A stretch of 62,048 nucleotides of DNA, counting the filler, from Dugesia japonica (taxonomy: Eukaryota), in NCBI GenBank assembly GCA_001938525.1. It is 5 parts of 5 records of this genome, joined end to end, with 100 filler letters (N's around TTAATTAATTAA, not from the genome) between each part and the next. Parts side by side here need not be neighbours in the genome. Positions count along the whole stretch, not along the records: positions 43,600 to 62,048 come from MQRL01568987.1; 4 more parts are not named here. One strand, given 5' to 3'. The position numbers and the translations under genes are program-made. Shown in pieces: positions 11,507 to 62,048 of this stretch. The notes under the pieces were generated by a model that was not told the origin of the DNA, did not search any database, and saw only the letters and a program-made list of their open reading frames with translations. The first letter of the stretch is position 1; each line of letters starts with the position of its first letter.

Positions 11507-11509
11507 AAT

Positions 11510-12022: not shown

Positions 12023-12104
12023 AAAATTAAATCTTTTTGTTGTATATTAATGCATTGGAAAATGTTGAATATCGGAATAAAAAATTTGTTTACTATAATA
12101 AATT

Positions 12105-24412: not shown

Positions 24413-24512
24413 NNNNNNNNNNNNNNNNNNNNNNNNNNNNNNNNNNNNNNNNNNNNTTAATTAATTAANNNNNNNNNNNNNNNNNNNNNNNNNNNNNNNN
24501 NNNNNNNNNNNN
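24413..24512. other. Artificial scaffold spacer
   Basis: N44-TTAATTAATTAA-N44. Confidence 0.97.
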
Positions 24513-29409: not shown

Positions 29410-31687
29410 ATGCTTGCAAAATGCGGTTTAGTTCGATTTAAGAACATTGGGTTACAATGTATTTTAATTAACAAAATTGAATTACTTTTAATGTAAAATA
29501 ATTCTTAGTTTTGAGGAAAGAAGTGACTAGTGCTTTAATAAATCCGAATAAAATTGAAGTATTTGTTGATGATATTCCTGTTCAATGTGATCCGGGGATG
29601 ACTGTATTACAAGCTTGTTCCATTGCAGGTGTAGAAATACCTAGGTTTTATTTAAAAATTTTTTAATTTAAAAAATATTTTAAATCTCCAATGAAAAGGT
29701 TCTGTTATCATGAGCGTCTATCAATTGCCGGAAATTGTAGAATGTGTTTAGTCGAAGTTGAAAAAAGTTTGAAACCTGTAGCGAGTTGTGCCGCTCCAGT
29801 TAATAAAGGCATGAGAATAAAAACGAATTCTCCAATGACTAAAAAAGCTCGAGAAGGTGTAATGGAATTTCTACTTGTAAATCATCCTTTAGATTGTCCA
29901 ATATGTGATCAAGGTGGTGAATGTGATTTACAAGTAATTTATAAATATATGCCTGTCTTAAATTATTTTAAAATTGTTATTTTATTAGGACCAATCAATG
30001 ATTTTTGGGAGTGATCGATCAAGATTTGTCGATAATTCGTATTTAGGAAAAAGGTATTTTTTAATATTAATTATTTTCATTATTATTATTACTAGAGCTG
30101 TCGAAGATAAAAACATAGGACCATTAGTGAAAACTATTATGACGAGGTGTATCCATTGTACGAGATGTATAAGGTTTATTAGTAATTTTATGTTTTCGTT
30201 ATTATAGTTTATAAATTAAGATTTGCTAGTGAAGTTGCCGGTGTGAATGATTTAGGAACAACTGGTAGAGGCAGTGACATGCAGGTAAATGATTATTTGT
30301 AAATTCACTTTTAAAAAACATTAAATTGCAGAAAGTTTACTGATTTAATTAAATTCTTTCACCAAAAACTTAAACAATTAACACAACTAATCACAACCGC
30401 TCAAATAGTCTTATTTTATTTATGTTTCATTAATCAAATTGACAAATTTATATTGTTCTAATAGCTTTAATTATTTGCCATAAAATCATTTTTATTGCTG
30501 ATATTATTTCCATATTGTTGAATTTAAAATAATTAAAATTAAATTAAATTATTAAAACTATTAAATTTGTTTATTTCTTTTTTATTTTTTGTGTGAAAAA
30601 AGATTTTTGATATAACGTTTTGATCATAAAAGTTATTACAAATAGCAAGTAAAAGTGGTAAACGTAATTTCAATAAAAAAATTATGTATTAATAAATATT
30701 AAAAATAACCTGTCATTTCCTCATATAAAAATTAAAATTTAGCTACTGTTTTCGCAGCTAAAAATATTTCCATTATTAAATAATTAAATTAATTTATTTA
30801 CAATATTGTGACCCTGTAATTTTTATTTGGCCCCAAAGTGATTTGAATTTGATAATCTTAATGAATAAAATCTTATATATTTCTTGATTTTCTAAAAAAC
30901 TGTTATATATATTAAAATGTTTTATAACAGCCACGACCCTGATAAAGCCAGTCGGGTAGTTTTTGTAAATCGTGAAATATAAATGTTTTATTGAGTTACG
31001 ACTGAGCTGCAATTTTATAGCAATTTTAAACATTACATAATTTATATAATTGAATAATGAAAGATTTTTTGGAATGTTTTATTTTTGATAGTTTTCGATG
31101 TGATATTTTGAATTTCTTTGTAAATACTCCTCAATTATTAACAATTATTGTCAAATATTTTTATACAAAATTTTAGGTAAATATAGAAATAGATTTAAAC
31201 TTATTAATAAACTTATGATAAACTTCAATATTAAAAACCAATTATTTATCAAGGTATTTTACATCCTTGTAATTAAGTTTCTGTTATTTCTTCAGGTTGG
31301 AACATATATTGAAAAGCTGTTTCGAAGTGAGCTATCTGGAAATGTTATCGATCTTTGTCCTGTTGGTGCTTTAACATCTAAACCTTATGCTTTTACGGCT
31401 AGACCATGGGAAACTAAAACAGTTAATAGTATTGATGTCATGGACGCTGTTGGTTCCAATATTGTAATTTCTATGCGAACTAATGAAGTTATGAGAATTA
31501 TTCCAAGACTCAATGAAGTAAAATAGATTTTTATTTCCTGTTATAACGCTAATAATATATTTAAATAATTAAGGAGATTAACGAAGAGTGGATAAATGAT
31601 AAATCTCGATTTTCTTATGATGGTCTTAAAAGGCAACGATTGTTAAATCCTATGGCAAAAGATCCAAGTACTAATATTTTGACTCCT
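29410..31687 (+). CDS. NDUFS1: NADH:ubiquinone oxidoreductase 75 kDa Fe-S subunit, 5' part. Exons: 29410-29458, 29509-29644, 29699-29933, 29989-30053, 30096-30173, 30221-30284, 31296-31517, 31574-31687. No further exon was found before the scaffold end.
   Basis: The spliced frame gives [72 protein letters not shown] and [12 protein letters not shown]. All introns are GT-AG with consistent phase. Confidence 0.97.
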
Positions 31688-32499
31688 GTAAGTCAATGTA
31701 AATTTCAAAACAAATTTTATTTTGAATCTTATAAAAGGGAAAACTGAAAAATTAAAAATTTATATTGGTTTTAAATAATTGAATTAATCCAATTTTGATG
31801 GATCAATTGATAAATTCGTTGATAAGAATTTTAGCTAAGAATTTGAGATTGCAGTAGTGGACCAAAAACAACAGAAATATATTTTGGAGATGGTAATTTA
31901 GCAAAATGATTGGAAAATATTCAGCTACTCTAGTTAAAAAAAAATATAAAATCAAAAGCATATCGAAAAAGGTCAAAAGGAAACTCAACTAAAACAGTAT
32001 AACTAAAAGTTGATTTGCACAACAATTTTGAATAAAAATTAAAATAAAGAAAAAAAAACAATGGCAAAATTTTTAAGTGTCATTTGTTTGATTTTTGTAT
32101 TAAATTTTGAGAGGTTTTTTCAACTTCGGTTTTTATTTTAAAAAGATTTTTGAAAATTTTGACAAAATATTTTTTTAACCATTTTATTTAAATAGCCATC
32201 TTGTATTATGTATAATTGCTTGAATCTTTGTATATAGATTAAATCATAACACACTTTAAATTTTGTCTGGGTGACTTATTTATTTACGTGATATAAAAAT
32301 TTTACTTGTTTATTGGCCAAAAATTCGCGCGGAATTTCAAATTTTGGTTTTCAATTTGGTTGGTTTAAATTTGTCGTATGCTTTCAAAGTTGGTGCCATT
32401 CAACTCAGCATTTAATAATGCCTAAACATTGCCATTATAGAAATATTACTTGTTTTTTTATTTTGGTTTCATTTTACTCACCACAGTTTTTACATAAAG

Positions 32500-34482: not shown

Positions 34483-34582
34483 NNNNNNNNNNNNNNNNNN
34501 NNNNNNNNNNNNNNNNNNNNNNNNNNTTAATTAATTAANNNNNNNNNNNNNNNNNNNNNNNNNNNNNNNNNNNNNNNNNNNN
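34483..34582. other. Artificial scaffold spacer
   Basis: N44-TTAATTAATTAA-N44. Confidence 0.97.
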
Positions 34583-43499: not shown

Positions 43500-43599
43500 N
43501 NNNNNNNNNNNNNNNNNNNNNNNNNNNNNNNNNNNNNNNNNNNTTAATTAATTAANNNNNNNNNNNNNNNNNNNNNNNNNNNNNNNNNNNNNNNNNNNN
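43500..43599. other. Artificial scaffold spacer
   Basis: N44-TTAATTAATTAA-N44. Confidence 0.97.
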
Positions 43600-43899
43600 T
43601 AACGCACACAAATGTGTGCTGCCGCCTATTTACATTAGAAAAATTGAAAAACAGTTATGTAATAATCCGATTAAGTCAGGGGGGGAGTTTGCTGAATGTT
43701 TGCTGTTCTTTACTCCCACTATCTATCTACTTTAGTCATAAATAATTTCATTACAATCACTACATCTAGTAATATTTCGTTCAAAAGGTTGGATAGAGGC
43801 ATCTGGATCAGTTCCAACATATTTTAAATATTTATTTGTTGCTTTATGTATTATATCAGTTAATTTATTATTGAAAGAAATGTATTATATTTATCTATT

Positions 43900-45615
43900 A
43901 CATTATTCCCATGGATTGGAATTTCGTCCTGATAAATGCGTTTATCTACACCTACCTCAAACCAACTTCACCAGCAAAATCTCTATAAATGATAAGAAAA
44001 TTAAAAAATTAGCTATAAAAGAATTNNNNNNNNNNNNNNNNNNNNNNNNNNNNNNNNNNNNNNNNNNNNNNNNNNGTCGGAGATAGAAATGACCAAAGTC
44101 CTTATGAAACGATACAACAAGTCATTGATGATTTAACAAAAATTGCTGAATCAGACCTACTAGGATGGCAGAAGCTAAAGGCATACAAAGTATTCCTACA
44201 TTCTAGACTCGCATTTGCATTCTGAACGCGCGAAATCAAAATTAGCGCCCTTAGCAATCCTCAGAATAATCCAAATGTCAGTAACAACAATATCAGTAAA
44301 GCTCGTTTCCAACTTAGACGTATATTAAATCTTCCGAAACGATCTGAAATTCTATACTTCTACAATTCAACCGAAAATGGAGGAGCTGCTTGCGTCGATC
44401 AGTTGGATGAATATCAAACTCAATGTGTTGTGCAATATTTTAAATTCCTTACCTCAAGATGCATGTATACAAACAAAATAAATATAGAATCCTTGTGTCT
44501 CGCAGCAAGTCAAAGAATAAACAAACTAAACCCATCTCTAAATGAATGCCTCGAATGGATAAATGGGAAAATACATTGAGAAACTCAAATGCAAAGAAAA
44601 CGCACTTTCAGCGAATAAGAACTGCAATACAGTTTTTCAAAAGAATTTATGATACAGATATATAGTTCAATGTACTTAATAAAGAAATAGTCCTTTAAAT
44701 GACAAATAAGACAAGGCAAACCTATGTTATTAATCGTACCTCTCGTAAAGAAATTTCAAATATCATTCACAACGTACTATTTGATTCATACGCTGAAAAT
44801 GGAAAAAAGCAAAGTAAGCAACTTGATATTCACAGCTATTCAAATGAGCCCTATTATAAATAAAATGATTTTCAAAAGTGACCTCAATGAATTTCGGTGG
44901 AATTTCATTCACAGTGCCCGAACAAACTCTCTATCAATACGTGAAAGATCCTTTTATGAAATATAAACTATCGGCGCTGTTTTACTGAAAATGAATCTTT
45001 ATCACATGTTCTTCAAAAATGCAAAATGAATCAGCCAATAGCAACTGAAAGGCATAATGCTTGCCTTGATATTATTGTCAGCAAACTTAAGACCTCAAAT
45101 GCTATTGTTGAGGTTAATAGAATAAATAAATATATTTCGGATTCTTTGGAAAAAGTGGATATTACAGTAACTAATATTGAAAAAAAACAATATATTTAAT
45201 AGATGTCATATGCCCAATAGACTCCAAAAAGAATTTTGAAGAGTGTAACAAAAGAAATTGAGAAAAATATGATCTACTAAAAAATAAAGTAAAAATAGCG
45301 AAGCCTGACTTTGAAGTAGAATTACATACTTGCATAGTTGAATAACTTGGCTCAATTCCAGCCGCAACCATCCGAATTCTGGAAAAAATTATCGAAAACA
45401 AAAATATAATTAAAAGAATATTAAAAGATTGCTCCAGATCAAATATAGTCTATTCAACAGAAGTATGGAAGTTCCGCAAAGCTGGTGTTAGAAACAACAA
45501 AATAACTTCTAATATTGAAGAATAGTATTTAAAGAATTGAAGAAACGTGTGTGGGTTCCATGTAGAACCAAAAACAAGACTATTTGTTTATTCAAACTTG
45601 TTATTTTAATAAATT
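43900..45615 (+). mobile_element. 3' part of a non-LTR retrotransposon with restriction-like endonuclease (NeSL/R5/Utopia/R2-type), decayed
   Basis: GLEFRPDKC (end of RT), FYNSTENGG, RRC..ENESLSHVLQKC..RHN (CCHC knuckle), KVDI..YLIDVICP.D (PD-D/ExK-like), LGS, and AATAAA near 45608. Confidence 0.8.
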
Positions 45616-46106: not shown

Positions 46107-47542
46107 TTTTTAAAAGTAATAAAATAAGAAATTTATGTTTCATTAGAAATACTTCGTGGTATGAATTTAGTTAATAATTCCTCTGCAGTAATTAAATAAT
46201 TTAACATAGTGATATTATAAATATAAATTTTTTCAAGTAGAATTAATGAAATACATTCTACTTGTTTCAGAGGAATATTACTCTAAAATGTAATTTCATC
46301 ACTTGATATAATTATTGAAAACTTTTTTTTCAGTAAAATTATATATTCAAAATTTTTATAAATACAATTAATCATTATAAATAGATGGATAGAAGCGCAT
46401 GGGGCCACCACCCCCAGGGAAATTTTTTTTTATTTTGGCCGATTTTATTTAGGGAGAGAGGGGATGTTTTGTTTTAATGAATTGAATTTTTTTGCGGATT
46501 TTCTATAGTATAAGAAATAAAAATTGAATTTCTTGTTTCAATGAATTGGAGAGGGGTGTACTGCCCCAGTAATAGTTATCGAGTTGTATTTCTTGTTTTA
46601 ATTAATGGAATATTTTGTTTGAATTCATGAAATTTTTGTTTTTATTATTGGAACTTTTTGTTTTAATTAATAAAATTTTTTGTTTTATTTAATCATGGAA
46701 TTTTGAATAATTTTTTTTAATTAATAGCGAAATTTTGTATTTAGCGTGTAATGGGGCTATCTTGATATTTTGCATGGTATGCGGCAGTCTTGATATTTTG
46801 CATATAATTCATATTATACATGAATAAATATTCAAATTAAAACGTTACTTTACAAAATGATAAAAAACAGAACTTTTTTCAAAAAAACATATTAGTTAGG
46901 AAATTTTCTATAAAAAGACACATTTTAAACAATACTATTGGCAATTTTCTATAAAAAATCTCATTAGTGATATAAAGACGTATTTGAGCCAGTTCGACAA
47001 CCAAACCTTTAGACGTTTAAGACTACCTTTAAAAATGTGGCCTGTAAATTTTGCAATTTCCGATTTCAGATTTTAAATTTTGTTGGGGTTAAACAACCGC
47101 TAAACAAGTTAAGGTTGAAAAATAAATTAACAAAAAAAATGGCAGGACCTTTATAGTCAACAATAATGAAAAATAAAGCATGAAAGCAGCAGTAGAAGGA
47201 AACGAAATAAAATCAAAGGTGAATATGAAGAACCGAGTAAAATAAAAGTAACTTACGTCTGGAAATTAAGAAAATTATTAAATTAATAATAAATAACAAG
47301 GGAAAGTGGTATGGAAAATAATTAATTAACAAAAGAAAATTAATTCATTTTAAAATAAAAAAGAAGCGAAATTAGTTAAAAATCTGTTTTATCCAGATAA
47401 TTTCGTTCAAGGAAGTCGGAAAGAACCCGGATAAGAAAAAATGAAGAGAGAACATCAAGATGCAATTAAAATTACGAAGAAGAAAAACATACCACCCTCC
47501 TGAAGGGTACTGCAAGGTTCCAAGATCCAGCTAATAGAAAAC

Positions 47543-48050
47543 CTACAAATAAAAATATAACAAAGACACAAATGTCATGTGTCCTGATAAAAATAGCTGC
47601 CAATCATGGCACCAAAATTCGAAAAAAATTTGTAGAAAATGGCATGAGAACCAATAACAGCAGAAAAACGTTGATCTAAAAATAATCAACAAATCCTGAC
47701 AAAGTTGGGGTGTTAAGAAAATACTATAAAAGGAACCCCCGAATTTTAGAAAAGACACAACAAAAAAATCCATTTTAAATCTCAAACCCTTAATATGACT
47801 TGTTTGATAAAAGACATCACAAACAGAACTTATATTCCATCAGGATCAATTATCAACTTTAATAAAGTTAAACTGGTAAGGTTGAAAAACCCTGTTAAAT
47901 TGTCTAATCGAATTTGTTAATAGAATTAGAAAAAACTAGTCCTGCTGCCCGAAGAAATTAATCATCAATAAGAATCAGCAGATTGTACCAGGAATTTGCC
48001 CTTACAATTGAAACTACCGTTGCAGAATCTATCGGATTAAATTTTGAGTA
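47543..48050 (-). pseudogene. Hydrophobic ORF remnant antisense to and upstream of the unknown cassette (copy B)
   Basis: Homologous to 11510-12022. Synonymous differences (cta/tta, ttt/ttc) in FL(Q/E)IF favour minus-strand coding. Confidence 0.55.
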
Positions 48051-49442
48051 AGGATATGTTTATTCTCTATGTGTGTTATTTTATTAAAAGTTGTGTATAA
48101 TGATTTTAATAAATTCCATTCGTAAAAATTGGTAGTTCAAATTAATATGCATATTATTTTTTATAAAAGATATTGAACATAATTATCATAAAACAAGCTC
48201 CCCTAAAATTTTAGAAAATTAATTTATTAATTTAAATTAATTTACCCACTCTAATAAACGTTATTACAAATCACGAATGAATTATCCCTGTGTTATTGTT
48301 AAGAAACGTCGACATTAACGTAATTTCAATGAGAAATGTTCCTATTAATAGATAAAATATTATCAACGCTAATTGAACCAAAATATGTTATTTTAAATTA
48401 ACTTTGTCTGTGTGCCTTGCTACTAATGATTTTTGGTAAACAGATATTCACCCTTTTCACTAGCCAAGCATACAGCCACTTTAAATCCTACAGCGAAAAT
48501 GTCAACCAATCAAATTGCCAGTCTGATTTAAATTAAACATCATATGTAATCAATTCATATCTATCGATATTACATCAACTCACTCTGTTCACTAACTCGC
48601 TAATACGCATTGCACACACGGCATTCAGTTCTCACCTAACACAACAACAAGAGTGAATTGAGTTGAATTTTCATAACCTTGAGTCGTAACCAAAGACGAC
48701 GTAAATCATTATAATTTAAATCACCTCAATTTTCACTACACTGAGACTAAACTTTAATTACCATTTCTGCGAAAAAACTCAAGATAATCGCATTTAAATT
48801 AAGCCTGTGTTCACAAAATTAAAATAAATTCTAGTTGAACTGCAAAAAAATGGATAATTTCTATCCTAAACAAGTTACATTACAGCAAATGTCTGCTATA
48901 CCAAATTTTTCGTTTGCTGATATTTTTATCTATAACCAAGCAAAGCATGAAACGCAATTTTTTTGCTTTTGTTATAAAATAAATTCAATGAGTATAATAA
49001 ACTATGGGAAAATTATGATTATTATAAAATTGTTTAGTATGATTGTTTCACAAAGTATGACCAAATAACGAGTAAACCTACACCATGTCATTTCCTGTGA
49101 TTTTCGCAATTATTAGTCATAAAAATAAGAATGGATTAGTTTAATACGATATTAGGAGGATGAGAGTTAGGTTTCCAACAAAAGCACGACAATATCAGTA
49201 ATTTACAAAGATATTGTTAATGCAATTATCAGTAAAAATGACCGGTCTGACTTACAGGTATCAGGTAGATTAGAGGATTCAATTTTATTTGAATTTTTAC
49301 AATGAGTGCGGTATGTAGACCAACTCCCAGAGAGATCTAACTTTAACGGGAAAAACATTATAGAAATTACACCTCCCGATTCTTCCAATTGTTATGGTCG
49401 AATAAAAATTAAATAATTTCATTTGTTAGATAATTCAGAATC

Positions 49443-49625
49443 ATGGCCGATCAGTTAACAAGAATGTTGGCATTAGTTCAGTTTGAAAGAGGGAAATCCC
49501 GAAATAGGCAGCTGTTAATTCATATAGTTTCACACGGTGTAACCGAACATCCCGACGAAACCGATCTCCAGTGTTTCGCCGAGATGTTCCCGCTCCAGAA
49601 CCACGTTGATCTCGATGAGGAGTGA
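49443..49625 (+). CDS. Unknown cassette ORF1, copy B (60 aa, intact)
   Basis: Aligns without gaps to copies A and C. Conserved E.P.ET.L.C..EMF motif and acidic tail. Acceptor ttcag upstream. Confidence 0.8.
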   Translation: MADQLTRMLALVQFERGKSRNRQLLIHIVSHGVTEHPDETDLQCFAEMFPLQNHVDLDEE

Positions 49626-49802
49626 TCCTCCTAGACTAAAAACCGCTGCTGGCTAGATTTTTGATTGAATAAAATTTAATTAACCTCACTTCTTATCTGT
49701 TGTTTTAAAAAATTGGCTCGTAGGGATTAACGATTATTAAAATTATTCTTTTATTTTAATTTTTATGTGTTTAAAAGTACTCTTTATTGTAGAACTGACA
49801 AA

Positions 49803-50213
49803 ATAGACTACGTTTGGGAACTGCTATGGGACCGTCGCACGGGGCGCACCATATTTAAAAGATATAGAAACCCGCATGATCGCAATGCAGGTATTTTAAT
49901 GGATTATTCTAATCTGTCCAGCGAAGATGCAGATAACGAAAGAGAATGGGCCGCCGCAGAGCACCAAGCTTTTTATCAATGGTTTGGTCCCGATCGCACT
50001 CAAGAAGTGTTACATCGGGCTACCCCCCTCGCTCCAATAGCTAACCAAACAATTAGTCAATGGCAGGGTGGTCCGTCGTTATTGCCTGTGTCGATCGCCC
50101 ACCTTCCCAGAAATACTAGATTCTCTCTAGACCTTGGGAATACTTTGTGGGATCTACGCAATCGAGCTAGTGGCGGTGCTCTAGAAAATACAGAACCCTC
50201 CTCAGGATCATAA
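49803..50213 (+). CDS. Unknown cassette ORF2, copy B (start codon appears decayed to ATA)
   Basis: IDYVWE aligns to MESVWE of copy C. Acceptor ttgtag at 49787-49792. Confidence 0.8.
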   Translation: MDYVWELLWDRRTGRTIFKRYRNPHDRNAGILMDYSNLSSEDADNEREWAAAEHQAFYQWFGPDRTQEVLHRATPLAPIANQTISQWQGGPSLLPVSIAHLPRNTRFSLDLGNTLWDLRNRASGGALENTEPSSGS

Positions 50214-50439
50214 AAGTTACCAATATGTCAGTATCGTGATTTTCAAATCTAGAATACATGTTTGTGTGTCTATTCGATATTTTCCTTTGTTGTGGGTTCT
50301 TCAGTTGTTACAAAAATTTTTCTCTTTTATAGGTATAAACCAATTATTAATAATCTGATAAACCATGTTGTAAAATAAAATGTTTGCCTTAGGATACATA
50401 AAATTCTAACTCTTGCTCTCATTAATGTGTATCTTTTAG

Positions 50440-50799
50440 TGCATTCTTCATTGAATCGCGTATCGGCTCCTACAAAAAAGATGCGAGATGATAGTGAGAA
50501 CCGCGAGATGACATGAGACCTGTATTGACTCGCTAAGCGTAAGTGGGAGGTGAATACATCTAACGCTAATAGTAAGGTAAGCCGATACCGAAAAAAATGT
50601 GTAGCTTTCCGAAAAGAAAGTTGAGGCTTCCCATGCATAAGAAAGGGTGTGGAATGGGCAAGTGGAGTCACTGGTTGACATGATCCGGTCTTACCAAGAC
50701 CGCGAAAATAAACTGGTGAGTGATGTAATGAAATTGAAGGTTTCCATGCCCCTTGAACCTTTGATGGTCGAGAAAGGCACTCAGACCCCTAAGAGTTAA
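50440..50799 (+). pseudogene. Unknown cassette ORF3, copy B (ends in KGTQT motif)
   Basis: Begins ttttag|TG CAT. Reads HSSLNR..APTK..SKVSRYRKKCV..DRENKLV..PLEPLMVEKGTQT with stops and one frameshift. Homologous to 58987-59345. Confidence 0.8.
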
Positions 50800-50936
50800 T
50801 GCATATACAATTTTTGTTAATAAACCTTTTGTGTGAACCTTCTTATGGCTTTTCTTTTCATTGTTTTACATTATGTGAGTAATCAGTTTAGTCTTTATGA
50901 AAATTTTATTTGAGAATTAACTTTAAATTATTTTAG

Positions 50937-51319
50937 TGCCTCGTACCCGTTTCCCGAACAATCTTCGTCGGTGCCATCACATTATGCGCTGACTCCTTAT
51001 CGAAAGGCATTTGAAGCGTAAGATAGACCGAACACTTCTTAAACAATTATCACAGAAGGACAGATTGATTAAAAAATTAGATATAATCGTAAAAAAGCAG
51101 AACGACCTTGTTATGCAAACGAAGGCCTTAGAAGCCGAAAATAAACAGTTATTGCAGAGGAAGATCGAGTTCTTAAAGCAATTTATTGACGATATATCCC
51201 GACAAATAGGCAACCCAACTGTAACACAATGGGATGACGATAATGACATCGAAGCCTTCAACTTTTTGGTGACAGAACCAAACCAGTGGTTTGATCCAGG
51301 GGCGCTGGATTTGCTTTAA
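50937..51319 (+). pseudogene. Unknown cassette ORF4, copy B (basic region, coiled coil, acidic tail)
   Basis: Begins ttttag|TG CCT. Reads PRTRFPNNLRRCHHIMR*LLIERHLKRK..LIKKLD..TKALEAENKQLLQRKIEFLK..SRQIGNP. Homologous to 58545-58866. Confidence 0.8.
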
Positions 51320-51711
51320 ATATTTTCGTAAAATAAAATATCAAAAATCAAAATTGTAATCTTTTTCTTTTGATGATAACAATAAGGGAAAAATCATAGA
51401 ACCCAAAAATAAAGGTTTATCGACGTGTACCTTCCATTAAGAGTAAGGTCAACCACCATAAACTGAAAACCTACCACAGGGACGGTAAGGTAAATTCTTG
51501 AAAGGGTTCCCTTGAGGGCTATTTTTTCCCCAGCCACCTTTTCGTGTCACTCGACTCAGGTGGGACCCCAACAATTGTAAGCCAGGTCGTTTTCGAAGCC
51601 AGCTCGTTTTACAACCTTTAAAAATGTGGCCCGTAAATTTTGTGAGGAGTGAGGAAAAAATCTTCTCCTTCATCGTTGGACATGTGGCACGTTAATTTTT
51701 TACTTAATAAA

Positions 51712-52053
51712 ATGGCTTTAGAATTTGAAGATTAACATGTGAAAATATTGAGGAAAATTTAAAATTCGCAAGTAATTTTGATTCTCAATTATTTTTAAAA
51801 TCACAAAAGCTTTGTACACTAGCAAAATTTAAAAGAAATAAAATCAAGAAATCCTAATAAAAAAGATTTTTTAATTGCGGCCGAAATTGGAATAACAACT
51901 ATGTCTTTAAATAAAATTTTGCGAGAATTAAATGTAAAACCAGAAAGAAAAAAATATCATAGATTAAAATATTATTATAATGCAAAAACTCGGGAATATG
52001 AAAAAGATCAATATGGTAATTATTTTTTTAATGTAAAAACAAAAATTCATTAA
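51712..52053 (+). pseudogene. Small helix-turn-helix-like ORF, frameshifted
   Basis: EIKSRNPNKKDFLIAAEIGITTMSLNKILRELNV fits an HTH pattern. Confidence 0.5.
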
Positions 52054-52604
52054 AATAAAAGCTTTGATCAAAATGTTGGATTTTTTTTATTGAAATTTGA
52101 TAACAATTCGATATTTCGACCTTGTCTTCGTCAGGAATTGACTTTTTAATTTATNNNNNNNNNNNNNNNNNNNNNNNNNNNNNNNNNNNNNNNNNNNNNN
52201 NNNNGAAATAATTTATTTTTATTAAATTTTAATTGGTTAATTTTAATTCTTATTTTATATTTAATTATTTAATTTTTATTATTGCAAATTATATTTATTT
52301 TAGGATTGTTTTCTTTGATTAGTATTTCTTCATGTTTTTTCTGTGTAGTGTAGAAATGTAGCTTGTTCCAAGTGTTTTCCATGAAATGTGATGTTGTTCT
52401 GGTGAAATTTTATGTTTGTGTTGAAAGTGTTTGAATACTTCACTTTCTTTTTGTTTCAAATGTTCCTTAAAAACAAAAAGTTTGAATTAATTCCTCCAGC
52501 TAAAATAAAAATAACTTTAACTGAAAAAAGAAATGAAATAGCAAATCAAGAATAGCCAATTGAAAAGCCTAAAAATATTTCCAAGAAAAAAAATACTCGT
52601 GTAG

Positions 52605-53204
52605 GTGGCGCAGTTGAAGAGGAAATTGAAAAATCTTTCGAGTCGCATAAATAGTGCTATCAAGTTGCTTAAATTTATTAATTATAAAAATGATGATTTA
52701 ATGGAAATAATTAAACAAGATCCAACATTTAAAAGTAAATTAATTGAAGATTATTCTACCGTTGTAAAATCATCATTAAAAGAAAAAGAAGTTTTGATAA
52801 AAACAATATTTCCACAATATAAATTACTAGGTGAATCATTAGCTTTAGCAGGAGAAACTATTTATGATTTATCAAAAGAGAATGATGTTTTAAAAACCGA
52901 GTTGGAAAAAGCAGAGGAATTTGATCAAGAAAAGATTGAGAAATTAATTACAAAGAAAAAAACTCAAGAAGATGAAAATAAAAATAAAATAATATTAAAT
53001 GATTTAAGAAGAACAAACATGAAAACCAAACAATTGCTTTAGAAAATGGCGCGAGAAATAGAAACAAAAGAGTTGAATAATTTTATAAACAATACAACTA
53101 AATTAAATAAAAAAGTCGAACACCAGAAAAGTATAATTTTATTTTTATCAGTGATAATTTTCATGGGATTACTTTTTATGTTAATAAAATGGATACTAAA
53201 TTAA
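52605..53204 (+). pseudogene. Coiled-coil protein with C-terminal transmembrane helix (one internal TAG)
   Basis: Reading through the TAG at 53040 the frame continues to SIILFLSVIIFMGLLFMLIKWILN*, overlapping the capsid start. Confidence 0.55.
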
Positions 53205-54513
53205 ATTTAGATAATAATATTGACTTTTCACATGTTTCAATAAAAAATGATGTTTTAAAAATTTTACCTTCATCCGGTTCAATTAATAATCTAATGGCGT
53301 CGGGAGATATCGTTTTTCAATCTTTACAATCAACAAACCCATTAGACATTTGCAATGCGATGCTGTATTTTAAAATTGAAATCACAATTCCAGATAAAGA
53401 AAAGAAAAAGATAAATAACTTTAGAAAATAATTTCTTTCCAAGTATACTTAAATCCATGAGATTAACCTTGAGTTCAACAGATGTAGAAACAATAAATGA
53501 TCCGGGAGTAATATCAACAATGTTAAATTTAATTACAACTACAGAAACTTGAAAAAAAGAATATGGACAAATGTCAGGATGGATGCCAGATACAAATAAA
53601 GAAGATACAGAAGTAAAATATTAGAATTCTAATACTGGATATTATAAGAGAAGGAAATTATACCTCAACAAGAAATTTGAAGGTTATTTTTTATTGAGAA
53701 ATTTATTTGGTTTTATGCAAAATTATAATAGACTTTTATACAACACAATGATTCAATTTACTTGTAATACACAAATGAATGATAATTTATTATTTTATGG
53801 AGAAAAAGATGCAACAGCGGCTTTAAAATCAATAACCATTGAATTACGCATACCAGAATTTAGATAATTACCAAAATCAGAATTATTTTTATTAGAAAGA
53901 ATTGCTACAAATAAACCAATAAAAGTTTCATACTTAAATCGAATAACTGCAAAAACAAATTTAGATTCTGGAGGATATTGTTCAATAAAAATAAGTAGCT
54001 TAGCATACAAACCAAGATATATTTTTATTGGAATAAAAGATAATGAAATTTCATTTCAAAAGAATAATAATTTATTTATACAAAAATTATCCAAGAAAGT
54101 TAAACAAGGAAATCCAGAAGCGGATGTAATAAAAGATTATTACATAAAAAGCATACAGACACAATTAAACAATACTTTTTATCCGATTAATGAATGTAAG
54201 TTTAATATGGAAAATAATGAAATGATTTTTCCTTATTTAAATTATACAAAATGTTGTCACGATTTTTTTTAACAGAATCACAGGTATCACTTTTAGATTT
54301 TGGAAACCTAAACCCAATATTTAGTTTTGATGTAAGTGCGCAAGATGATAAATTAAATATTAGCAATGTTGATGTAAGACTTTACACATTACAAAAGATT
54401 AAGATTTTAGAGGAACTGTTTATTGGTGTATCCTTGAAGAAAAACATGTAGAAATGAAATTACCAAATAGTAAAATTGTTATGGTGGAAAATGTGAGGGG
54501 ACTTAACCTTTAA
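53189..54513 (+). pseudogene. Major capsid protein (double jelly-roll, hexon-like), frameshifted
   Basis: ILPSSGSINNL..GDIVF, LENNFFPSIL.SMRL..VETINDPGVISTMLNLIT, GWMPDT, LFGFMQNY, KPRYIFIG and PIFSFDVSAQ are motifs of Maverick/adintovirus MCP. Confidence 0.82.
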
Positions 54514-54543
54514 TGTTAAAATTTTAAAATTTATAAATAAAAA

Positions 54544-55790
54544 ATGGCAAGTCTAATATTTAAATGTGAAAACTGTAATAAAATTTTATCAAGGAACAAT
54601 AAATCGAGACATTATAAAAATTGTAAGCAAACCGGAGGAGATCTCCAATCTTCTAATATTACATCAGCGTTATTAAAACCTTTTACTTTGGAAAAATATC
54701 CTGGTGAGAGACATTTGTTTAAACATAATTACACCGGACCGGGAACTAGATTAGATTTAAGATTAGATGAAAATAATAATTCTTCACCCGGAGAAGAACC
54801 AGTTAATAAAGTTGATGAAGTCGCATTAAAACATGACATTGCTTATCATTCAACCGATATTAGAGATTGTTATCTTGCAGATGTAAATTTAATTCACGAT
54901 TTAAATAATATTGAAAATCCAACTATTGGAGAAAAATTACAAAGAGCTTTAGTTAAATTAGTTATGAAGGGAAAGATAATGTTAGGACAAGGCGTTTTAG
55001 CACATGAGCTTCACTACGAATAGAGAAAACCAAAACATTTTCTAAAAGTAACAGTACATGATAAAGATGAAACATGGTCGGCAGATTTAATTTTTCATGG
55101 AATAGAAAGAAGAGGTAAAATGGTAATTTTAACAGTAATCGATCTCTATACTCGTTTTGCATTTTTAGAAATTTCAGGAGATAAAACAGGACCACAAGTT
55201 AGAAATACTTTTGAAAAAATTATTGGAAAAATAATAGAATGCCGAATAACTTGTGGGTGGATAAAGGAAAAGAATTTTATAATAAATCATTTCAAAATTT
55301 TTGCATTAAAAATAAAATTAATTTATACTCTACTGAAAATGAAGGTAAGGCAGTTGTTATAGAAAGATTTAACCGAACATTTAAAAATAAGTTGTTTAAA
55401 CATTTTACTACTGTTGGGAATCAAGATATTACGGATTCTTTATTACAAGAAATTGTAAACACTTACAACAACACAGTTCATTCATCAATAAAAACCACAC
55501 CACAACTTGCGAAAATAAATCCAGAAAATATTAAAGATGAAATTGAAAAACATAATACTGAATATGATAATCTAAATGAAAAGTGTAAATTTAAAATCGG
55601 TGATCGAGTAAGAATGTTTAAGGTAAATAAAACATTAGCAAAAAGTTATACAGTTAAATTGTCAAAGAAAATTTATTTAGTAACAAGAATTTACAATACA
55701 AGACAATGAACTTTTCAAATTAGTAATTTAAATGGTGAAAAAATTCCTGGGAGATTTAATACTAATGAATTACAGAAAACAGCATTTTAA
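54544..55790 (+). pseudogene. Zinc finger / PLA2 / rve integrase fusion (TAG at 55021, frameshift near 55235)
   Basis: CENCNK..SRHYKNC, HNYTGPGT, DEVALKHDIAY, then the same frame gives HELHYE*RKPK..WSADL..VIDLYTRFAF, followed by WVDKGKEFYN..IERFNRT. Confidence 0.9.
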
Positions 55791-55908
55791 CCAGCGCTCA
55801 TAAATTACTTTCATTAAAAATCTTAAAATGTAAAGTCCTAAAATGTTAAAGTGTAAAAATATAACACTTAATAGGTTGCTGCGCAACCTTAAATTAATTT
55901 TATAGAAA

Positions 55909-56648
55909 ATGAATGAATTAATATGGAGAAAAAATACAACACTATTTAATAATAAAGTTTTACCAAATAATTTTAGATTATTAATGATTGGATCTTCAGG
56001 TTGTGTGGAAAATGTTATATTAATGAAAATGTTACTAACACCAGATTTTTTAGATTACAATGTTTTAATTTTTTTATTCAACAACAATCAATCAATTTGA
56101 AATACAATTGGTTTATATAGGTTTTGAAAATGGATTAACTAAACAAGAAATAATTTCAATGTTTGAAAATCAAAATATGGTTCCTGATTCTTACAGTACA
56201 CCACATCAGGTTTTTCAATTTTATTTAGATAAAAAATTAGTTAAAAAACCAAGATCAATAAATGTTACACTAAGTAATATTTCTTGTGATAAACTTTTGA
56301 GGGATAAAAAAAATTTAATTATTTTTGATGATGTTGTTAATGATAAAAATCAAGAGATACAGAAAAGTTATTTTACTCACGGTCGTCATTCAAATTGTAA
56401 TGTAATTTACATTTCCCAAACTTATTGCCATTTAGATAAAAATTCTATAAAGGAATTATTCAAATTGTTATATTTTTTTCAAACTAAATAAAACAGATAG
56501 AGATAATGTTTATCATGAATTATTTTCAAATATTTTTAGTAATAAGATGGAATATGATTATGAAACTAATTTACACTGGAAAACTAAATATAACTATTTT
56601 TATTTAAATAAAGAAACTGAAGAAATGTTGGATGATTTATTTACATAA
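55909..56648 (+). pseudogene. A32/FtsK-like packaging ATPase
   Basis: RLLMIGSSGC (damaged Walker A), LIIFDDVV (Walker B) and HGRHSNCNVIYISQ. Confidence 0.88.
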
Positions 56649-56689
56649 AAATTTTTAAATAGTATCTACGATAGTTTTATAATTATCCA

Positions 56690-57385
56690 TAATTTTACAA
56701 AATGAAATTTTACAAAATACCACTAAATCTTATTATATTTTTATTTATATAACTTTTTTTTATAATTTATTCCAATTGATTGTAAATACATTTCCATGTT
56801 TATTTTATCTTTTAATTTATTTTTCATTGCTTTAAATATTGAACCTAAATATGCAGAACTAATTAATGTCATTTTTTCATGATCACCATGCCACCGTTGA
56901 GTGCTTTCAGTTAAAACCTCTAAACTTTGAAAAGTAAAATTATAACGAGCCTTTTTAAAGGCTTGAATATTAAATTCAGTTTGTGGTTGTGAATTATATT
57001 CCAATTTAAATTTTTCTAAATCAAATTTATTTTTGATAACATTTTTATGTTTTTCTTCAAACTCTGTAACAATATCTCTTTCAGGAATATTTACATCAAC
57101 TATATCACTCTCGTCAATAGCATAAAACACCTCTTCATCTTCAGAATCCTCTTCCTCTGCTTTTATTATTTCCTCTACATTTAGTGGGGTATATCTCGAC
57201 TTGAATAATTTTTTATAACTTTTATCTATATAATCTTCAGTAGTTAATTCATCAAGAAATTTTTCATCACTAATTAATTTTTTATCATCTTTTTCTGCAA
57301 AACGTAGTTTACAATCATCACATAATATTTTTCTAAATTAATAACGTCGTTTAATATTTTTTTTACTTGACTAAAAACACTCCAT
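56690..57385 (-). pseudogene. Maverick ORF of unknown function, homologue of 5762-6727
   Basis: Same position and orientation as in copy 1. Shares CxxC and YL.S.GINYK. Confidence 0.65.
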
Positions 57386-57437
57386 TTTTACTAGTATTTT
57401 TTTAATCATAATATTATTTTTTTGACCCACCCCGAGG

Positions 57438-57495
57438 GACCCGACTCATAAAAGATTCGACTCATAAAGGACCCGACTCATAGGGACCCGGCTCG
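57438..57495. repeat. About 16-bp tandem repeat (gacccgactcataaa) in the divergent intergenic region
   Basis: Three full units and one partial. Same position as the 25-bp repeat of copy 1. Confidence 0.85.
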
Positions 57496-57560
57496 TTTTA
57501 TGATCCTCTTTAAACTTTTGTTCCCCAAAATTTTTTTGCCTCAAATTTTTCCTTTAAAAA

Positions 57561-58010
57561 ATGGAAAAGCCTACAGAGGATAAATTGAAAAAAATAATAA
57601 ATTCAAACAAGTGTAAATCAGTAAAAATTTATGACAAAAATTCTTGGATTAGTAAAAAAGTAAAAGAGGAAACAAAGAAAGCCCACGAAGGTGGTTTTGC
57701 ATTTTTAGCAGCAATCCCCGCAGTTATTGCAGGCCTGGCATCTGCACCGGCGTAGCCAGTGGCATTGCCAGTACCGTAATAAATTCACGGGCCGCTCAAG
57801 TTCAGGGTCTTGAAAAATGAAAAAAGAAAAAGAAATTCAAATTCTAAACTTGGGCTCTGGACTTTATTTATATCCTTATCAAGGTTCTGCAATTCATAAA
57901 TATTGAAAAATTACTAGGAACCTAGGTTTAAAAAATATTACACGAGGTTTTAAAAATGGGGTAGAAATAAAAGTAAAACGTAATGGATTATATCTAAGGC
58001 CTTATAAATA
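57561..58010 (+). pseudogene. Putative virion core protein, homologue of 5016-5556
   Basis: MEKPTEDKLKK..HEGGFAFLAAIP, LGSGLYLYPYQGS and GLYLRPY. Confidence 0.6.
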
Positions 58011-58021
58011 TCCTTTGGAAA

Positions 58022-58545
58022 ATGACGACGAGAACGGAGAAGAGGATCGAGGAACTGAAACAATTGATTAAAGCTCGAGGAAATTATAATATTTTTTACT
58101 GGGAAAATTGTTGAATCGAGAAAATTAAAAGCGAAGTTAACAACTCTACAGTGGCCAACTATTAGAGCTATTGAAAAAATTACAATTAAATCCAACTCAA
58201 TAGATGTAAGAGATTTAACAAATTTTTTTTCAAGTGAAAAAAAAATTCCATTTACTCCTGAATACTCTATTAATAATGTAAATGCTAGTGGAATGTTAAC
58301 TGAAACAATTATTCCTCGATATTCTGGATTAAATGTTATTGGTTTAGCTGGTGCGAAAATGTTTATGAAAATAACTTTGAAGGAAAATAAAATTCATTTA
58401 TTTGAAGAATATGGGGAAATAAATTATTATTAAAATCAGAAATTATTCCATTCACTGATTATTTAGAATAATTTTGGGGAATCAAGATGGCTTGGAAACA
58501 CGTGAAGATATTAGGACTTATTTATATAAATTAATTTCTCCTCTC
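58022..58545 (+). pseudogene. Conserved Maverick ORF, homologue of 4023-5010, truncated
   Basis: FTGKIVESRKL..LQWPTIRAIEKI and ILGNQDGLETREDI. Homology stops abruptly near 58545. Confidence 0.7.
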
Positions 58546-58866
58546 ACAACCAACAGCCGTCATCATCGTTCGAATGGATCCAAGCTGGGTTCCCAATCTG
58601 TCGGGAAAGATCAGCGATATACAGTTTTAAGAAATCTATTTTTCTCAACAGTTACTTCTTATTCTCTACCTCTAGGGCTTTGGTTTATATTGCTAAGTTG
58701 TTTTGCTTACAAACTACCAAATCCAATTTTTTTATGAGTTGATTCCTCTGGGCAAGGTGCTTAAGAAGAGCTTGTTCTGTTTTACGCTTTAAGTGACGCT
58801 CTAATAATAGACGGCGCAGGATACGGTGGAACCTCCTCAAACTAGTCGGAAACACGATTCGAGGCA
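58545..58866 (-). pseudogene. Unknown cassette ORF4, copy C
   Basis: Begins ctttag|TG CCT. Reads PRIVFPTSLRRFHRILRRLLLERHLKRK..LIKKLD..TKALEVENKK*LLRKIDFLK..SRQIGNP. Confidence 0.8.
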
Positions 58867-58986
58867 CTAAAGAAAAAGTACAATTAAATTAATGAATACC
58901 CAATCAACGACTCAGGAAAAACAAGTAACAGAAGAACTTCATACAAATAAATAATTTATTAACTCAAACAATAATGAAATAACAAG

Positions 58987-59345
58987 TTAGGAGCGGCTCG
59001 TCTGAGTACCTTTGTCGATCATTAGCGGCTCGAGTGGGATTTTCTCCCGGAGAATGAAGATATCGTTAACTAGTTTATTTTCTCGGTCATGGCTGGACCA
59101 ATTAATCTTTGAAAAAGATTCCACTTGTTTTTTCCAAGTGCGCTCCTGTAAATGGGAGGCCTCGGCTTCCTTTTTAAAGTGAACACACTTTTTCTTATAA
59201 CGGAGGACTTTACTATGGGCCGCGGCTACCTCAGCTTCTCATCGGCGTTTTGCTTACCGGTATAAATCCCAGGTGAGTTCGAGGTCCTCAATGGTATCAC
59301 GGATTTGTTTAGTAGGAGCTGGGGGGCGATTTAAGGAGGAATGCA
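58987..59345 (-). pseudogene. Unknown cassette ORF3, copy C
   Basis: Begins ttttcag|TG CAT. Reads HSSLNRPPAPTK..SKVLRYKKKCV..DRENKLV..PLEPLMIDKGTQTSRS*. Confidence 0.8.
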
Positions 59346-59572
59346 CTGAAAAGAGAAAACTTATATATATTTTATCGAAAATAGATAAAGTTATGTTCCA
59401 AAACGACACAGTAGTCATAAATTCGATTACTAAGTTCTATATAACCTAAATCTACTTATACACCTATGAAAAAATCTGAGAACAAAACACACAAAAATCT
59501 ATTATATTTTATAATATATTTCTACATATATTTTAGCCGAGCCAATTTTATTATAGGTCACCCTACAATTCA

Positions 59573-59926
59573 CTAAGGAGGAATTGATACATCCGGTACG
59601 GGTGCAGTATTTTCGGAGTCTTCACTGCCCGTGGGCTCTCTTATCCCCCAGAGTAGGTTAGTAATAAAAGCCTGTACCGCGGGAGCTGGAGTTAGAGTGA
59701 GAGACTGGTAACGAAAAGAAGTCACCAGGGTACGATCAGGGCCTGACTAAGCCTGGTAACATTGTCGCTCACCAAAATCTCTGATGCGCTCGACGATTGA
59801 CTCGACGGGAGGCAAATTTGACCTGTCAACTAAGATCCCGGCGTCGCGGTTGTGTCGATTATGGTGCCGCCGGAAAATGACTCGACGACTTCTTCAGTCT
59901 ATGACCCTTTCCCATACGGATTCCAT
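59573..59926 (-). pseudogene. Unknown cassette ORF2, copy C
   Basis: Begins ttttag|aaATG. Reads MESVWERVID*RSRRVIFRRHHNRHNRDAGILVDRSNL..GPDRT. Confidence 0.75.
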
Positions 59927-60060
59927 TTCTAAAATATAAAAAAAAATTTAACACACATAACATAGCAGCAAAATGTAATGGATAATTTATTTAAAATAGC
60001 TAATATACATAAGGAAAGGTTTTTATTCAGTGTCAGGCGAAGTCTCAATAAAACCAAAAG

Positions 60061-60243
60061 TCATTCCTCATCCAGGTCTACTTTCGTGTTCAAAAGAAAC
60101 ATCTCAGTGAAACAGCAAAGATCGGTCTCATCCGGATGTTCGATCTCTCCTTTTGTCAGCAAATGAGCCAACAACTGCTTGGATCGGCTAATTTGTCACC
60201 GCCTCTTTATCCATTGCAGGACACGATATAATTCTGTCGGTAT
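60061..60243 (-). pseudogene. Unknown cassette ORF1, copy C (ATA start, TGA at codon 16)
   Basis: IPTELYRVLQWIKRR*QISRSKQLLAHLLTKGEIEHPDETDLCCFTEMFLLNTKVDLDEE*. Confidence 0.8.
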
Positions 60244-60699
60244 AGTTAAAAGGTGAAATTATTAATCGTGATATTTATTCCAGGACGTGGTTTCCAAACA
60301 CAAAAGTTGACCCTGGACTGCCAATGATATCCTGAGGCTTCTAATTAAGGATAAGGGTAATAAAGAGGATATTATCAAGGTAGATTATAACATATTAGCA
60401 TAATAATAATAGTATTAAAAAATACATCACGTCATGTTAATAACTGCAACAAATTATCTTAAATCTTTTTACTAGTAATACTTATATATTCCTTATATAT
60501 AAGATGACATATAGTAATACTATCGACTTTGAATGACGATCATTGTAGTCTGAACGTTAATCTGCTGGATAAAATTAGATATACTTGTCTATACTGTGAT
60601 ACTCCTTGAGTAGAGGGATAGTAGCGCACATAGCTAGCACACATTCAGTGACCCCCCGTGAATGTAATAAAATTTAATCTTAATGCATTTAGTTGGGAA

Positions 60700-61200
60700 G
60701 TTTTGGTCAGTGAATTGGTCGAAGTTTTCTTCGGGAATGGAAAATTTGGGTAATTTTCGGACAATTTGGTCAATTTTTGGTTAATTCAGGTAAATTTGGC
60801 TCATTATTGGACGATGCAGTCAATTATTTACTCGGTTTGGGTAATGTTAGTCACTTTTTTTACTCAGTATGGATAAACTTGGTTAATTATTTGCTCACAA
60901 AAGTAATTTTTAGGTGAATTCGGTCCAATATTTCTTCGGGTTTAGTCAATTTTGAATTTTTGGAAAATTGGTAAATTATTTAATAGGGTATGGTTTAGTT
61001 GGTTAATTTGTGAACCATTCGGTCAATTATTTACTCATAGAGGTCAGATTTTGGTTGACAGTTCTCAGAGTTTGGTTGATAGTGGACAGAGATTGAATGA
61101 TTATGATCAATTATTTATTCATAAGGGTAATTTTTCGATTATTTGGGGTAATAATTTTATTGGTAAGGGTAATTTGGTCAATTATTTCATTTAAATTAGT
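60700..61200. repeat. Degenerate minisatellite of ggtcaatt/ggtaattt words
   Basis: Many (t)tgg(t/g)(c/t)aatt-like words at roughly 10-11 bp spacing. Confidence 0.65.
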
Positions 61201-61659
61201 TAATCTCATATGATAAAAAATACAAATCATTCCCGGTACATTACAAATTAGTTAACCTTAATTAATAAAATGTTAATAAATTTTATCTTTTAGAAAAAAC
61301 TTTAATTTCGATTAAAAATGTCATCAAAGAAATTGATTATAGTTAATTAGAGGCAATTATTGCTTTTTTTAATATATTCAACCAAATTTCAATAATTTTA
61401 GTTAAATAATTTACTCAATGCGATCAAATCGGATTAATTTTCAGTCAATTGCAGTTTTTTGTTAAGGAATTTCCTAGTAATAATTCATTTGCAAAGGAAT
61501 TTCATTGGAAATGGCCAAATTTAAATTTAAACATTAGTCAGTTCCTATAGATTTTTAAGATTTATAGTTTATAGGATGATAAATAAATTATAAATTAATT
61601 AATAAATGATAAATTATTCTCATACATTGAATTTCAATAATAGTTTATTTTCTTTCCAT

Positions 61660-61800
61660 ATCATTACATTACCTCATCCGGTTAGTACAGTCGAGCAATT
61701 ATTCCGACTGTTCACATCCAGTCTCAAACTGTTAACGCTCAATAACGTTAGCTTCCAATTGAGTCCGTTCATATATGAACTTGTCGGCCAACTAGCGTAG
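61660..61800 (+). pseudogene. Unknown GC-rich coding fragment, homologous to 18335-18495
   Basis: Shared EQLFR.FTSSLK..TL..VS.QLS. Lies antisense to and upstream of cassette C. Confidence 0.6.
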
Positions 61801-62048
61801 TTTTAACTATGCTAAGCTCGATTACGATATGTGCATCTCCGGTAGCAGTGATTCAAACCGTTCACATCCGGTCATGAATGTACACCACTACAATTGTTTA
61901 AAAACAATCAGTCATCATCGTTAATACTTGACTAGACACGGATCCGCAAAATGACATAGAATTCCAACTCACAATTATCAAATCCATTGTATGTATTTAA
62001 TTTAATTAAAATATTAAATAAGGACAATAATAATAATCAAATAATAAT

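Follow-up and report, generated by a model that had tools for sequence, protein, structure and literature searches.

How would a protein be made from a reading frame that begins with TG, directly behind a splice-acceptor motif, and has no ATG of its own? The question is raised by a cassette of four small open reading frames (ORFs) in the genome of Dugesia japonica (assembly GCA_001938525.1), in which ORF3 and ORF4 begin in this way. We analysed the whole stretch of DNA in which the cassette lies (the window, 62,048 nt), which is AT-rich repeat DNA holding Polinton remnants, Gypsy fragments and the host gene NDUFS1. The answer that we favour, and regard as probable, is that the four ORFs are alternative terminal exons of a shared cis-spliced leader, the last base of which would complete the start codon of ORF3 and ORF4.

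Three decayed copies of a four-gene cassette

The window holds three decayed copies of the cassette, each with at most four small genes (Table 1). Copy A (13.4-14.2 kb, plus strand) has ORF1 and ORF2 only; copy B lies at 49.4-51.3 kb (plus strand) and copy C at 60.2-58.6 kb (minus strand). ORF1 and ORF2 of copy B and ORF2 of copy A are the only open frames, all other ORF copies having internal stops or a frameshift. In run X13, possibly a DNA run, the contigs mark the cassette as multi-copy (6 at 50019, 17 at 51242, 7 at 59307 and 58881).

Copy A stops near 14342 against Gypsy pol remnants. Immediately before this end, 125 nt beyond the AATAAA of ORF2 and where the position of ORF3 is expected, stands an acceptor-like cacttttag. 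Copy A also contains a short ORF at 12687-12803 (plus strand) whose ATG is preceded, at 2 nt, by tacag; it could be an additional exon of the cassette, and no counterpart was found in copy B. Fixed-size gaps at 11407-11506, 24413-24512, 34483-34582 and 43500-43599, with TTAATTAATTAA in mid-gap, are an assembly artefact, and their flanks may not be contiguous.

Table 1. Positions of cassette features and of neighbouring elements in the window.
Feature	Position	Strand	Details
A-ORF1	13440-13625	+	one internal stop; ATG 3 nt past ttgtag; AATAAA 13665
A-ORF2	13834-14178	+	open; preceded by CTAAT/TTAAC..cccgtag; begins ACA directly after cccgtag, in-frame ATG at +19; AATAAA 14217
B-ORF1	49443-49625	+	open frame of 60 aa; an ATG of its own lies 4 nt past ttcag (AG 49437-49438); AATAAA 49668
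B-ORF2	49803-50213	+	open frame without ATG at aligned start; acceptor-like ttgtag ends 49792
B-ORF2 poly(A) motif	50374	+	AATAAA, 161 nt past stop
B-ORF3 acceptor	50434-50439	+	ttttag; branch-like CTAAC at -34, TTAAT at -18
B-ORF3	50440-50799	+	starts TG CAT, no ATG; broken by a stop at codon 26, another at codon 30, a frameshift (near 50620) and one later stop; AATAAA 50819
B-ORF4 acceptor	50931-50936	+	ttttag; branch-like TTAAC at -20
B-ORF4	50937-51319	+	starts TG CCT, no ATG; stop at codon 19; AATAAA 51332
C-ORF1	60061-60243	-	one internal stop; neither AG nor ATG at aligned start; AATAAA 60027
C-ORF2	59573-59926	-	two internal stops; ATG 2 nt past ttttag (AG ends 59929); AATAAA 59552
C-ORF3 with acceptor	58987-59351	-	tttcag; TG at 59345; two internal stops; AATAAA 58960
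C-ORF4 with acceptor	58560-58872	-	ctttag; TG at 58866; in-frame ATG absent; 3' end lost to Polinton DNA
Block shared by copies A and B	47554-47765 = 11507-11715	+	64%, E 2e-16; 1.7-1.9 kb 5' of ORF1
Direct repeat	47022-47053 and 51611-51642	+	30/32 nt identical (94%); flanks copy B and upstream block
Polinton core remnants	53111-56645	+	3' of copy B, same strand; capsid, PLA2-integrase, A32 ATPase
Double-jelly-roll capsid	53.1-54.4 kb		Polinton remnant
PLA2-integrase	7.2-8.6 kb and 54.5-55.7 kb		Polinton remnants
A32 ATPase	56.1-56.6 kb		Polinton remnant

The four ORFs evolved under coding constraint

In all seven pairwise comparisons pN was 0.21-0.42 against a pS of 0.81-0.96, and third codon positions were the least conserved. 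Purifying selection acted on all four frames, and the ORFs evolved as protein-coding genes carried by a mobile element present in many copies. Synonymous sites are saturated, so the copies represent old, independent families in which neutral sites have been randomised; across these families the order of the four orphan ORFs is kept. Coding constraint is present from the junction on: the first six codons of ORF3 after the TG specify the same amino acid in six of six cases, with three synonymous changes.

None of the four ORFs matched a Pfam family at cut-off or a PHROG. ORF4, ORF3 and the ORF1 alignment found no relatives among the near-length proteins of a 5.8-billion protein set. ORF2, compared with 1.84 billion representatives, gave three matches, of which one is real: an unnamed 94-aa protein with its own Met on a 512-nt contig (P0005; 49%, E 3e-15). 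The other two are bacterial-type repeat proteins and were treated as chance, as were the condensation-domain clusters that a protein-feature atlas returned for ORF1 (0.90; just 75-84 shared features); the atlas held nothing usable for ORF2. No match to the cassette came from phage records or from locus scans of viral_contigs and metagenome_contigs, and a 38-residue match in genome_contigs (L001) was dropped as coiled-coil similarity. PDB sequences gave a best E of 0.31, and ORF3 and ORF4 had weak coiled-coil-type matches only. The predicted folds of ORF2 (mean pLDDT 44.9) and ORF1 (62.8, two helices) were both too poor for a fold search. ORF1 carries the motif [DY]LxC[FL][AT]EMF in all three copies and an acidic tail in copies B and C. 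The four ORFs most likely encode accessory, host-modulating proteins of the element.

Acceptor motifs are kept despite unalignable spacers

An earlier, sequence-only reading of this DNA placed the starts of ORF3 and ORF4 directly behind splice acceptors, and the junctions stand as it quoted them (a slash marks the proposed junction): ttttag/TGCAT at 50440 and tttcag/TGCAT at 59345 (minus strand) for ORF3, ttttag/TGCCT at 50937 and ctttag/TGCCT at 58866 (minus strand) for ORF4. Its observation that homology starts at the acceptor was borne out as well. When copies B and C are anchored on the AG, ungapped identity at the two sites is low before the motif (6/24 and 8/24 from -30 to -7) and high from it onwards (5/6 and 5/6 from -6 to -1; 22/30 and 18/30 downstream). 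The whole spacers of the two copies align no better than shuffled ones, the same score being reached in 105 of 300 and 32 of 300 shuffles. Even so, YTTYAG/TG is kept at all four ORF3 and ORF4 sites of copies B and C. Throughout the window YTTYA precedes 11 of 835 GTGs, these four included. At the composition of the spacers (45% T) its probability is 0.019 per site, 4e-4 for two independent sites and 1e-7 for four, values that are post hoc because the motif was derived from these same sites.

Among 5229 AGs, all four sites are in the top 1-8% by a simple pyrimidine/generic acceptor score and equal the best host introns; branch-like words lie 18-34 nt 5' of the acceptor at three of them. A YAG had also been reported before the start of ORF1 and ORF2 in most copies, and is found there (ttgtag/aaaATG at 13440, ttcag/aatcATG at 49443, ttttag/aaATG at 59926), as is the exception made for ORF1 of copy C, whose aligned start lacks an AG and likewise an ATG. 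The ranks of the ORF1 and ORF2 acceptors are mixed (top 1%, 3%, 15%, 15% and 48%), that of B-ORF1 being merely average (top 48%). Judged by these patterns, the acceptor-motif feature is real and under selection.

In the host gene NDUFS1 (29411-31690, plus strand) seven introns were inferred. Six measure 42-58 nt, a size in keeping with a flatworm host, and the seventh is 1011 nt long; the exon-final base at their donors is A in two cases and G in five. The donors are weak (GTTACA, GTTTTA, GTAAAA). A strong pyrimidine-rich TAG followed by GTATAA (AG/GT) occurs at 50316-50338, in the ORF2-ORF3 spacer of copy B and 107 nt before the ORF3 acceptor, and resembles a recursive splice point.

Separate polyadenylation motifs follow the ORFs

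Each ORF was also said to end in its own stop, usually with AATAAA downstream. This is largely correct: AATAAA starts at most 50 nt past eight of nine stops (49668, 50819 and 51332 among them), against a window base rate of 17% (P about 5e-6), the exception being B-ORF2, where the motif lies farther off (Table 1). Polinton DNA cuts C-ORF4 at about 58545-58560, which places its stop and AATAAA outside the check. The next acceptor AG follows 65-206 nt past the AATAAA, and the stop-to-acceptor spacers measure 120-227 nt in eight of eight cases. Three AATAAA also occur within ORF3 and ORF4, in a Glu-Asn-Lys codon run. At the level of sequence, the proposed 3' exons have separate poly(A) signals.

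ORF3 and ORF4 share an invariant TG and no conserved ATG

No ATG is conserved in ORF3 or ORF4, and to that extent the claim that they lack one holds. In C-ORF4 an in-frame ATG is missing altogether and the first ATG in any frame is at +301; the first internal in-frame ATG of C-ORF3 is codon 109; and the internal ATGs of copy B (ORF3 codons 15 and 24, ORF4 codons 17 and 60) are not common to copy C. Upstream in frame, a stop is reached at three of the four sites, 21, 4 and 8 codons up, the first of these being B-ORF3, where no ATG intervenes. At C-ORF3 an in-frame ATG stands 24 codons upstream with no stop in between. An in-frame upstream ATG, which the sequence-only reading had named as evidence against itself, is thus found once, unconserved, in copy C and not in copy B; it is one count against the leader model. 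The base rate at which an ATG precedes a stop is 3194/15054 (21%), so at least one upstream ATG among four sites has a chance of about 60%.

NTG accounts for 73 of 1013 cassette codons and GTG for 12 of 57 Val codons, and by simple arithmetic on these rates an in-phase TG would open two unrelated ORFs by chance, with its G kept through saturation, with a probability of about 0.005. ORF1 and ORF2 copies with an ATG of their own start 3, 4 or 2 nt past the AG, that is in any phase, whereas the TG of ORF3 and ORF4 is invariant and in phase. The free offsets of ORF1 and ORF2 are compatible with a non-coding leader. If the leader already supplied the Met codon, this would constrain the phase and leave the letters free. 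A leader ending in a complete AUG would not serve, since it would be out of frame at ORF3 and ORF4 and open 4, 4, 25 and 9 codons, as had been argued before; the flatworm spliced leaders (SLs) reported in PMC12582326 all end in ATG. As the last base of the leader we prefer A because the canonical ATG results, A/TG and G/TG being indistinguishable at the DNA level.

A proposed shared leader and its candidate promoter

We propose a single non-coding leader, lying upstream, that would be joined in cis to one or another of the four acceptors, each ORF being an alternative terminal exon polyadenylated after its own stop. At ORF3 and ORF4 the last base of the leader, likely A, would complete the start codon A/TG, and neither ORF would be translatable from RNA that is unspliced or reads through. 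Which single-gene mRNA is made would depend on how an early poly(A) site competes with an acceptor farther on. The idea of one leader joined to four terminal exons had been put forward before, and its selected acceptors, separate 3' ends and split start are supported by the sequence statistics. The conserved donor expected upstream of ORF1 was not found across the upstream regions of copies A, B and C, where shared words and local alignment gave nothing above shuffles except a block common to copies A and B (Table 1). This block carries GGGGTGT and a TATA-like word (47725; 11677) and is a candidate promoter. A/GTTA candidates lie at 11821 and 47866, 144 and 141 nt past the TATA-like word, in a local alignment that is not significant (26/500 shuffles). 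An upstream 'ORF0' (47139-48048 and 11509-12027) was rejected: it has no consistent frame, its extension is not significant and it matches no Pfam family or PHROG.

Three RNA runs and one contig set were placed on 46300-62048 (4 of 24 listed runs, the RNA runs being mapped with 6%, 25% and 25% of each read). Cassette depth was only 0-2.3 reads. At this depth no spliced read, joint or loose end fell at any acceptor in the rows listed, which comprised 15 joints out of 121 and 24 loose ends out of 2265 and were filled by unrelated high-copy repeats. RNA reads of run X2 covered two very high-copy repeats well, 52075-52599 and 60475-62048, the mean depth reaching about 240.

Other explanations for the TG starts

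An invariant TG, and a single phase common to all four ORF3 and ORF4 sites, would likewise be expected if the shared cis-spliced leader ended in G, yielding a near-cognate G/TG start or, from a phase-1 coding leader, Val as first codon. G is moreover the commoner exon-final base at host donors (five of seven NDUFS1 introns). GUG, however, is a weak start codon, whereas ORF1 and ORF2 use ATG; and a coding leader would not require TG twice (the chance of about 0.005 given above) and would fix the phase of ORF1 and ORF2, yet their offsets vary. We consider a leader ending in G unlikely, though not negligible. Splicing might also be dispensed with, ORF3 and ORF4 starting at a genomic GTG, in frame in every one of the four cases, or farther upstream at an ATG such as that of C-ORF3, while the T-rich AG would be a by-product of AT-rich DNA, in spacers as T-rich as these. 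But YTTYA, so rare before GTG, is kept at four of four sites across saturated divergence; the base at -3 is T, a poor start context; and the upstream ATG, expected at 21% per site, is missing in copy B. Unspliced starts are in our view very improbable.

The dimensions of the spacers would suit an operon-like unit, with a poly(A) tail added after every ORF and the host SL trans-spliced to the acceptor that follows. As in flatworm and nematode SL operons, the genes are less than 300 nt apart and a poly(A) signal is followed by an acceptor without a donor, and the distances given above fit the flatworm operon spacing of at most 300 nt described in PMC12582326. Intercistronic distance and acceptor thus agree with an SL operon, but translatability of the downstream genes after SL addition does not: the terminal AUG of flatworm SLs (PMC12582326) is out of frame at all four ORF3 and ORF4 sites, opening the few codons counted above, and translation of both would then depend on the overlapping GUG. 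This makes an SL operon quite improbable. A slightly slimmer chance attaches to four independent genes whose promoters would lie in the spacers and whose short introns of host type (42-58 nt) would build the start codons locally. There is indeed a tgA/GT 58 nt (copy B) and 45 nt (copy C) before the ORF4 acceptor, in the size range of six of the seven host introns. Such an A/GT, however, occurs by chance in about one in three spacers after shuffling. At 40-60 nt it is missing before ORF3 in both copies, and B-ORF3 has no donor with exon-final A at 40-120 nt. The spacers also lack the conservation expected of promoters. Alternative terminal exons behind a shared leader ending in A are the reading we retain.

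The cassette probably belongs to a Polinton

Between copies B and C lie the capsid, PLA2-integrase and A32 ATPase remnants of a Polinton core. Its Pfam matches are above cut-off for PF08398 (E 6e-9) and PF04665 (E 6e-7) and below it for PF21738 (E 3.6e-4) and PF00665 (E 4.5e-4); motifs elsewhere in the window that we take to be pPolB and protease have no Pfam match. Copy B is separated from the core by an N gap (52155-52204), which contigs of run X13 bridge by joining 51989 to 52467 and 52041 to 52475 (two contigs each). The segment 51551-51593 is weakly like a Polinton internal repeat at 57457-57499 (E 0.2-0.6). Copy C stands head-on against Polinton DNA, with homology to the first Polinton up to 58541 and ORF4 homology to near 58560. 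Copy A is set between a Gypsy zinc knuckle (across the gap) and a Gypsy protease, with no adjoining Polinton core.

GC3 of the cassette is 0.39-0.61, compared with 0.07-0.23 in 13 Polinton ORFs, 0.27-0.28 in Gypsy and 0.17-0.18 in NDUFS1. Identity between copies B and C in ORF3 and ORF4 is 61-66%, against 67-84% for the core segments of two Polinton remnants. Cargo of nematode Mavericks (wasp, krma) is described as 2-5 kb long, high in GC, poorly conserved and intron-bearing, located from the left terminal inverted repeat (TIR) to the integrase, in elements with intronless core genes (bioRxiv 10.1101/2022.07.12.499685). Copy B fits such a cargo region well, its GC being higher and its conservation lower than those of the core. 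Maverick cargo, in contrast, is a single host-like multi-exon gene, while the cassette has four ORFs, all orphans, and an acceptor and a poly(A) motif for each of them (the acceptor of C-ORF1 being absent). From the position of copy B and the GC3 contrast, the parent of the cassette is probably a Polinton, and its cargo region the likeliest place; we do not put this more strongly because no TIR was found. The settings of copy A, among Gypsy remnants, and of copy C, which faces the Polinton genes, count against it. Polintons have a 6-bp target-site duplication. No inverted copy of 46350-47100 or 51380-51720 is present in the window, where the copies are truncated and gapped.

Other parents or arrangements were considered and dropped. 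That copies B and C might be the paired TIRs of a single element is ruled out by synonymous saturation, and a giant Gypsy of the Burro type, as described in PMC6431247, shares no domain. The direct repeat at 47022 and 51611 is no LTR pair, its alignment spanning just 32-70 nt; it may instead represent a promoter word or mark a boundary of cargo exchange.

Several neighbouring features were noted. Two diverged Polinton remnants (1-8560 and 52605-58541) have opposite orientation and the same gene order, and both have a PLA2-like domain in the frame stretch of the integrase or just before it. At the same place between divergent genes they carry short tandem repeats (5640-5701 and 57438-57482, with units of 25 and 16 nt), probably a bidirectional promoter; GCTCGTTTTA, noted with these repeats, recurs at 51602 and 57491. 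Heavily decayed fragments on the minus strand (8560-10900), between the first Polinton remnant and copy A, look polymerase-like and integrase-like by motifs without a Pfam match, and presumably come from a third Polinton. Right of copy B, a decayed ORF (51712-52053, plus strand) with a helix-turn-helix-like look and high X13 contig depth has no Pfam or PHROG match. Decayed frames at 43742-45500 (plus strand), also without a Pfam match, we take to be like a non-LTR retroelement.

Comparison with known systems

One of the closest parallels comes from adenovirus, to which Polintons are related (PMC6431247). In its major late unit a tripartite leader is spliced to alternative 3' exons L1-L5, each ORF keeping its AUG (PMC7070027). 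The proposed unit would share with it a non-coding leader, alternative 3' exons with their own poly(A) signals, single-ORF mRNAs and one promoter, here inferred. It differs in that each adenovirus ORF has an AUG just past the leader, which two of the cassette ORFs lack, and in having one poly(A) motif per ORF; its ORFs are small and non-structural, and it is known from DNA alone.

A start codon split by splicing has been described for env of springer-subclade errantiviruses, where an AU dinucleotide is joined to env, giving AU/G (bioRxiv 10.1101/2023.08.03.551782). There, as proposed here, the start codon of a mobile element is finished at the junction with an upstream leader. In errantiviruses the split is AU/G, with one acceptor and one F-type env behind gag-pol in an LTR element; in the cassette it would be A/TG, with two split-start ORFs among four exons. 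Unlike errantivirus env, the cassette is linked to no env, RT or LTR: ORF1 to ORF4 have no Pfam family at cut-off and no LTR pair surrounds copy B.

ORF1 recalls the Oncoids of adintoviruses, small accessory genes with an Rb-binding LxCxE and paired CxxC (PMC8502044), through its L-x-C with EM behind it and, in two copies (B and C), the acidic tail. Yet none of the three ORF1 copies matches L.C.E, the ORF1 alignment has no paired CxxC, and a structure model of low confidence places the motif within a helix. The main text of the adintovirus paper (PMC8502044) makes no mention of splicing.

In the main texts searched, with Repbase and most subscription papers outside this scope, we found neither a split start with alternative terminal exons nor leader-type splicing in Polintons. 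Each part has a precedent, and the combination was not found described for Polintons. More tentatively, and with somewhat less than even confidence, we suggest a Polinton family with an adenovirus-style accessory unit, in which one promoter and leader would serve four mutually exclusive polyadenylated exons and the final A of the leader would start two orphan proteins.

Implications for Polinton biology

ATG-based ORF calling misses or truncates ORF3 and ORF4, which may partly explain why they have no database relatives. Hidden accessory genes of other Polintons could be searched for by the pattern of a stop, AATAAA and YTTYAG/TG. Polinton gene expression is little described in the literature searched, and if the proposal is true, junction reads would be a direct readout of whether and where a Polinton is active. 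In planarians, knockdown of PIWI de-represses Polintons (PMC8532177). Splice choice alone would then switch on ORF3 and ORF4, a splicing-gated programme in a class of elements with core genes reported to lack introns, kept across families old enough for synonymous saturation. A leader with alternative terminal exons would give Polintons the RNA-processing logic of their adenovirus relatives.
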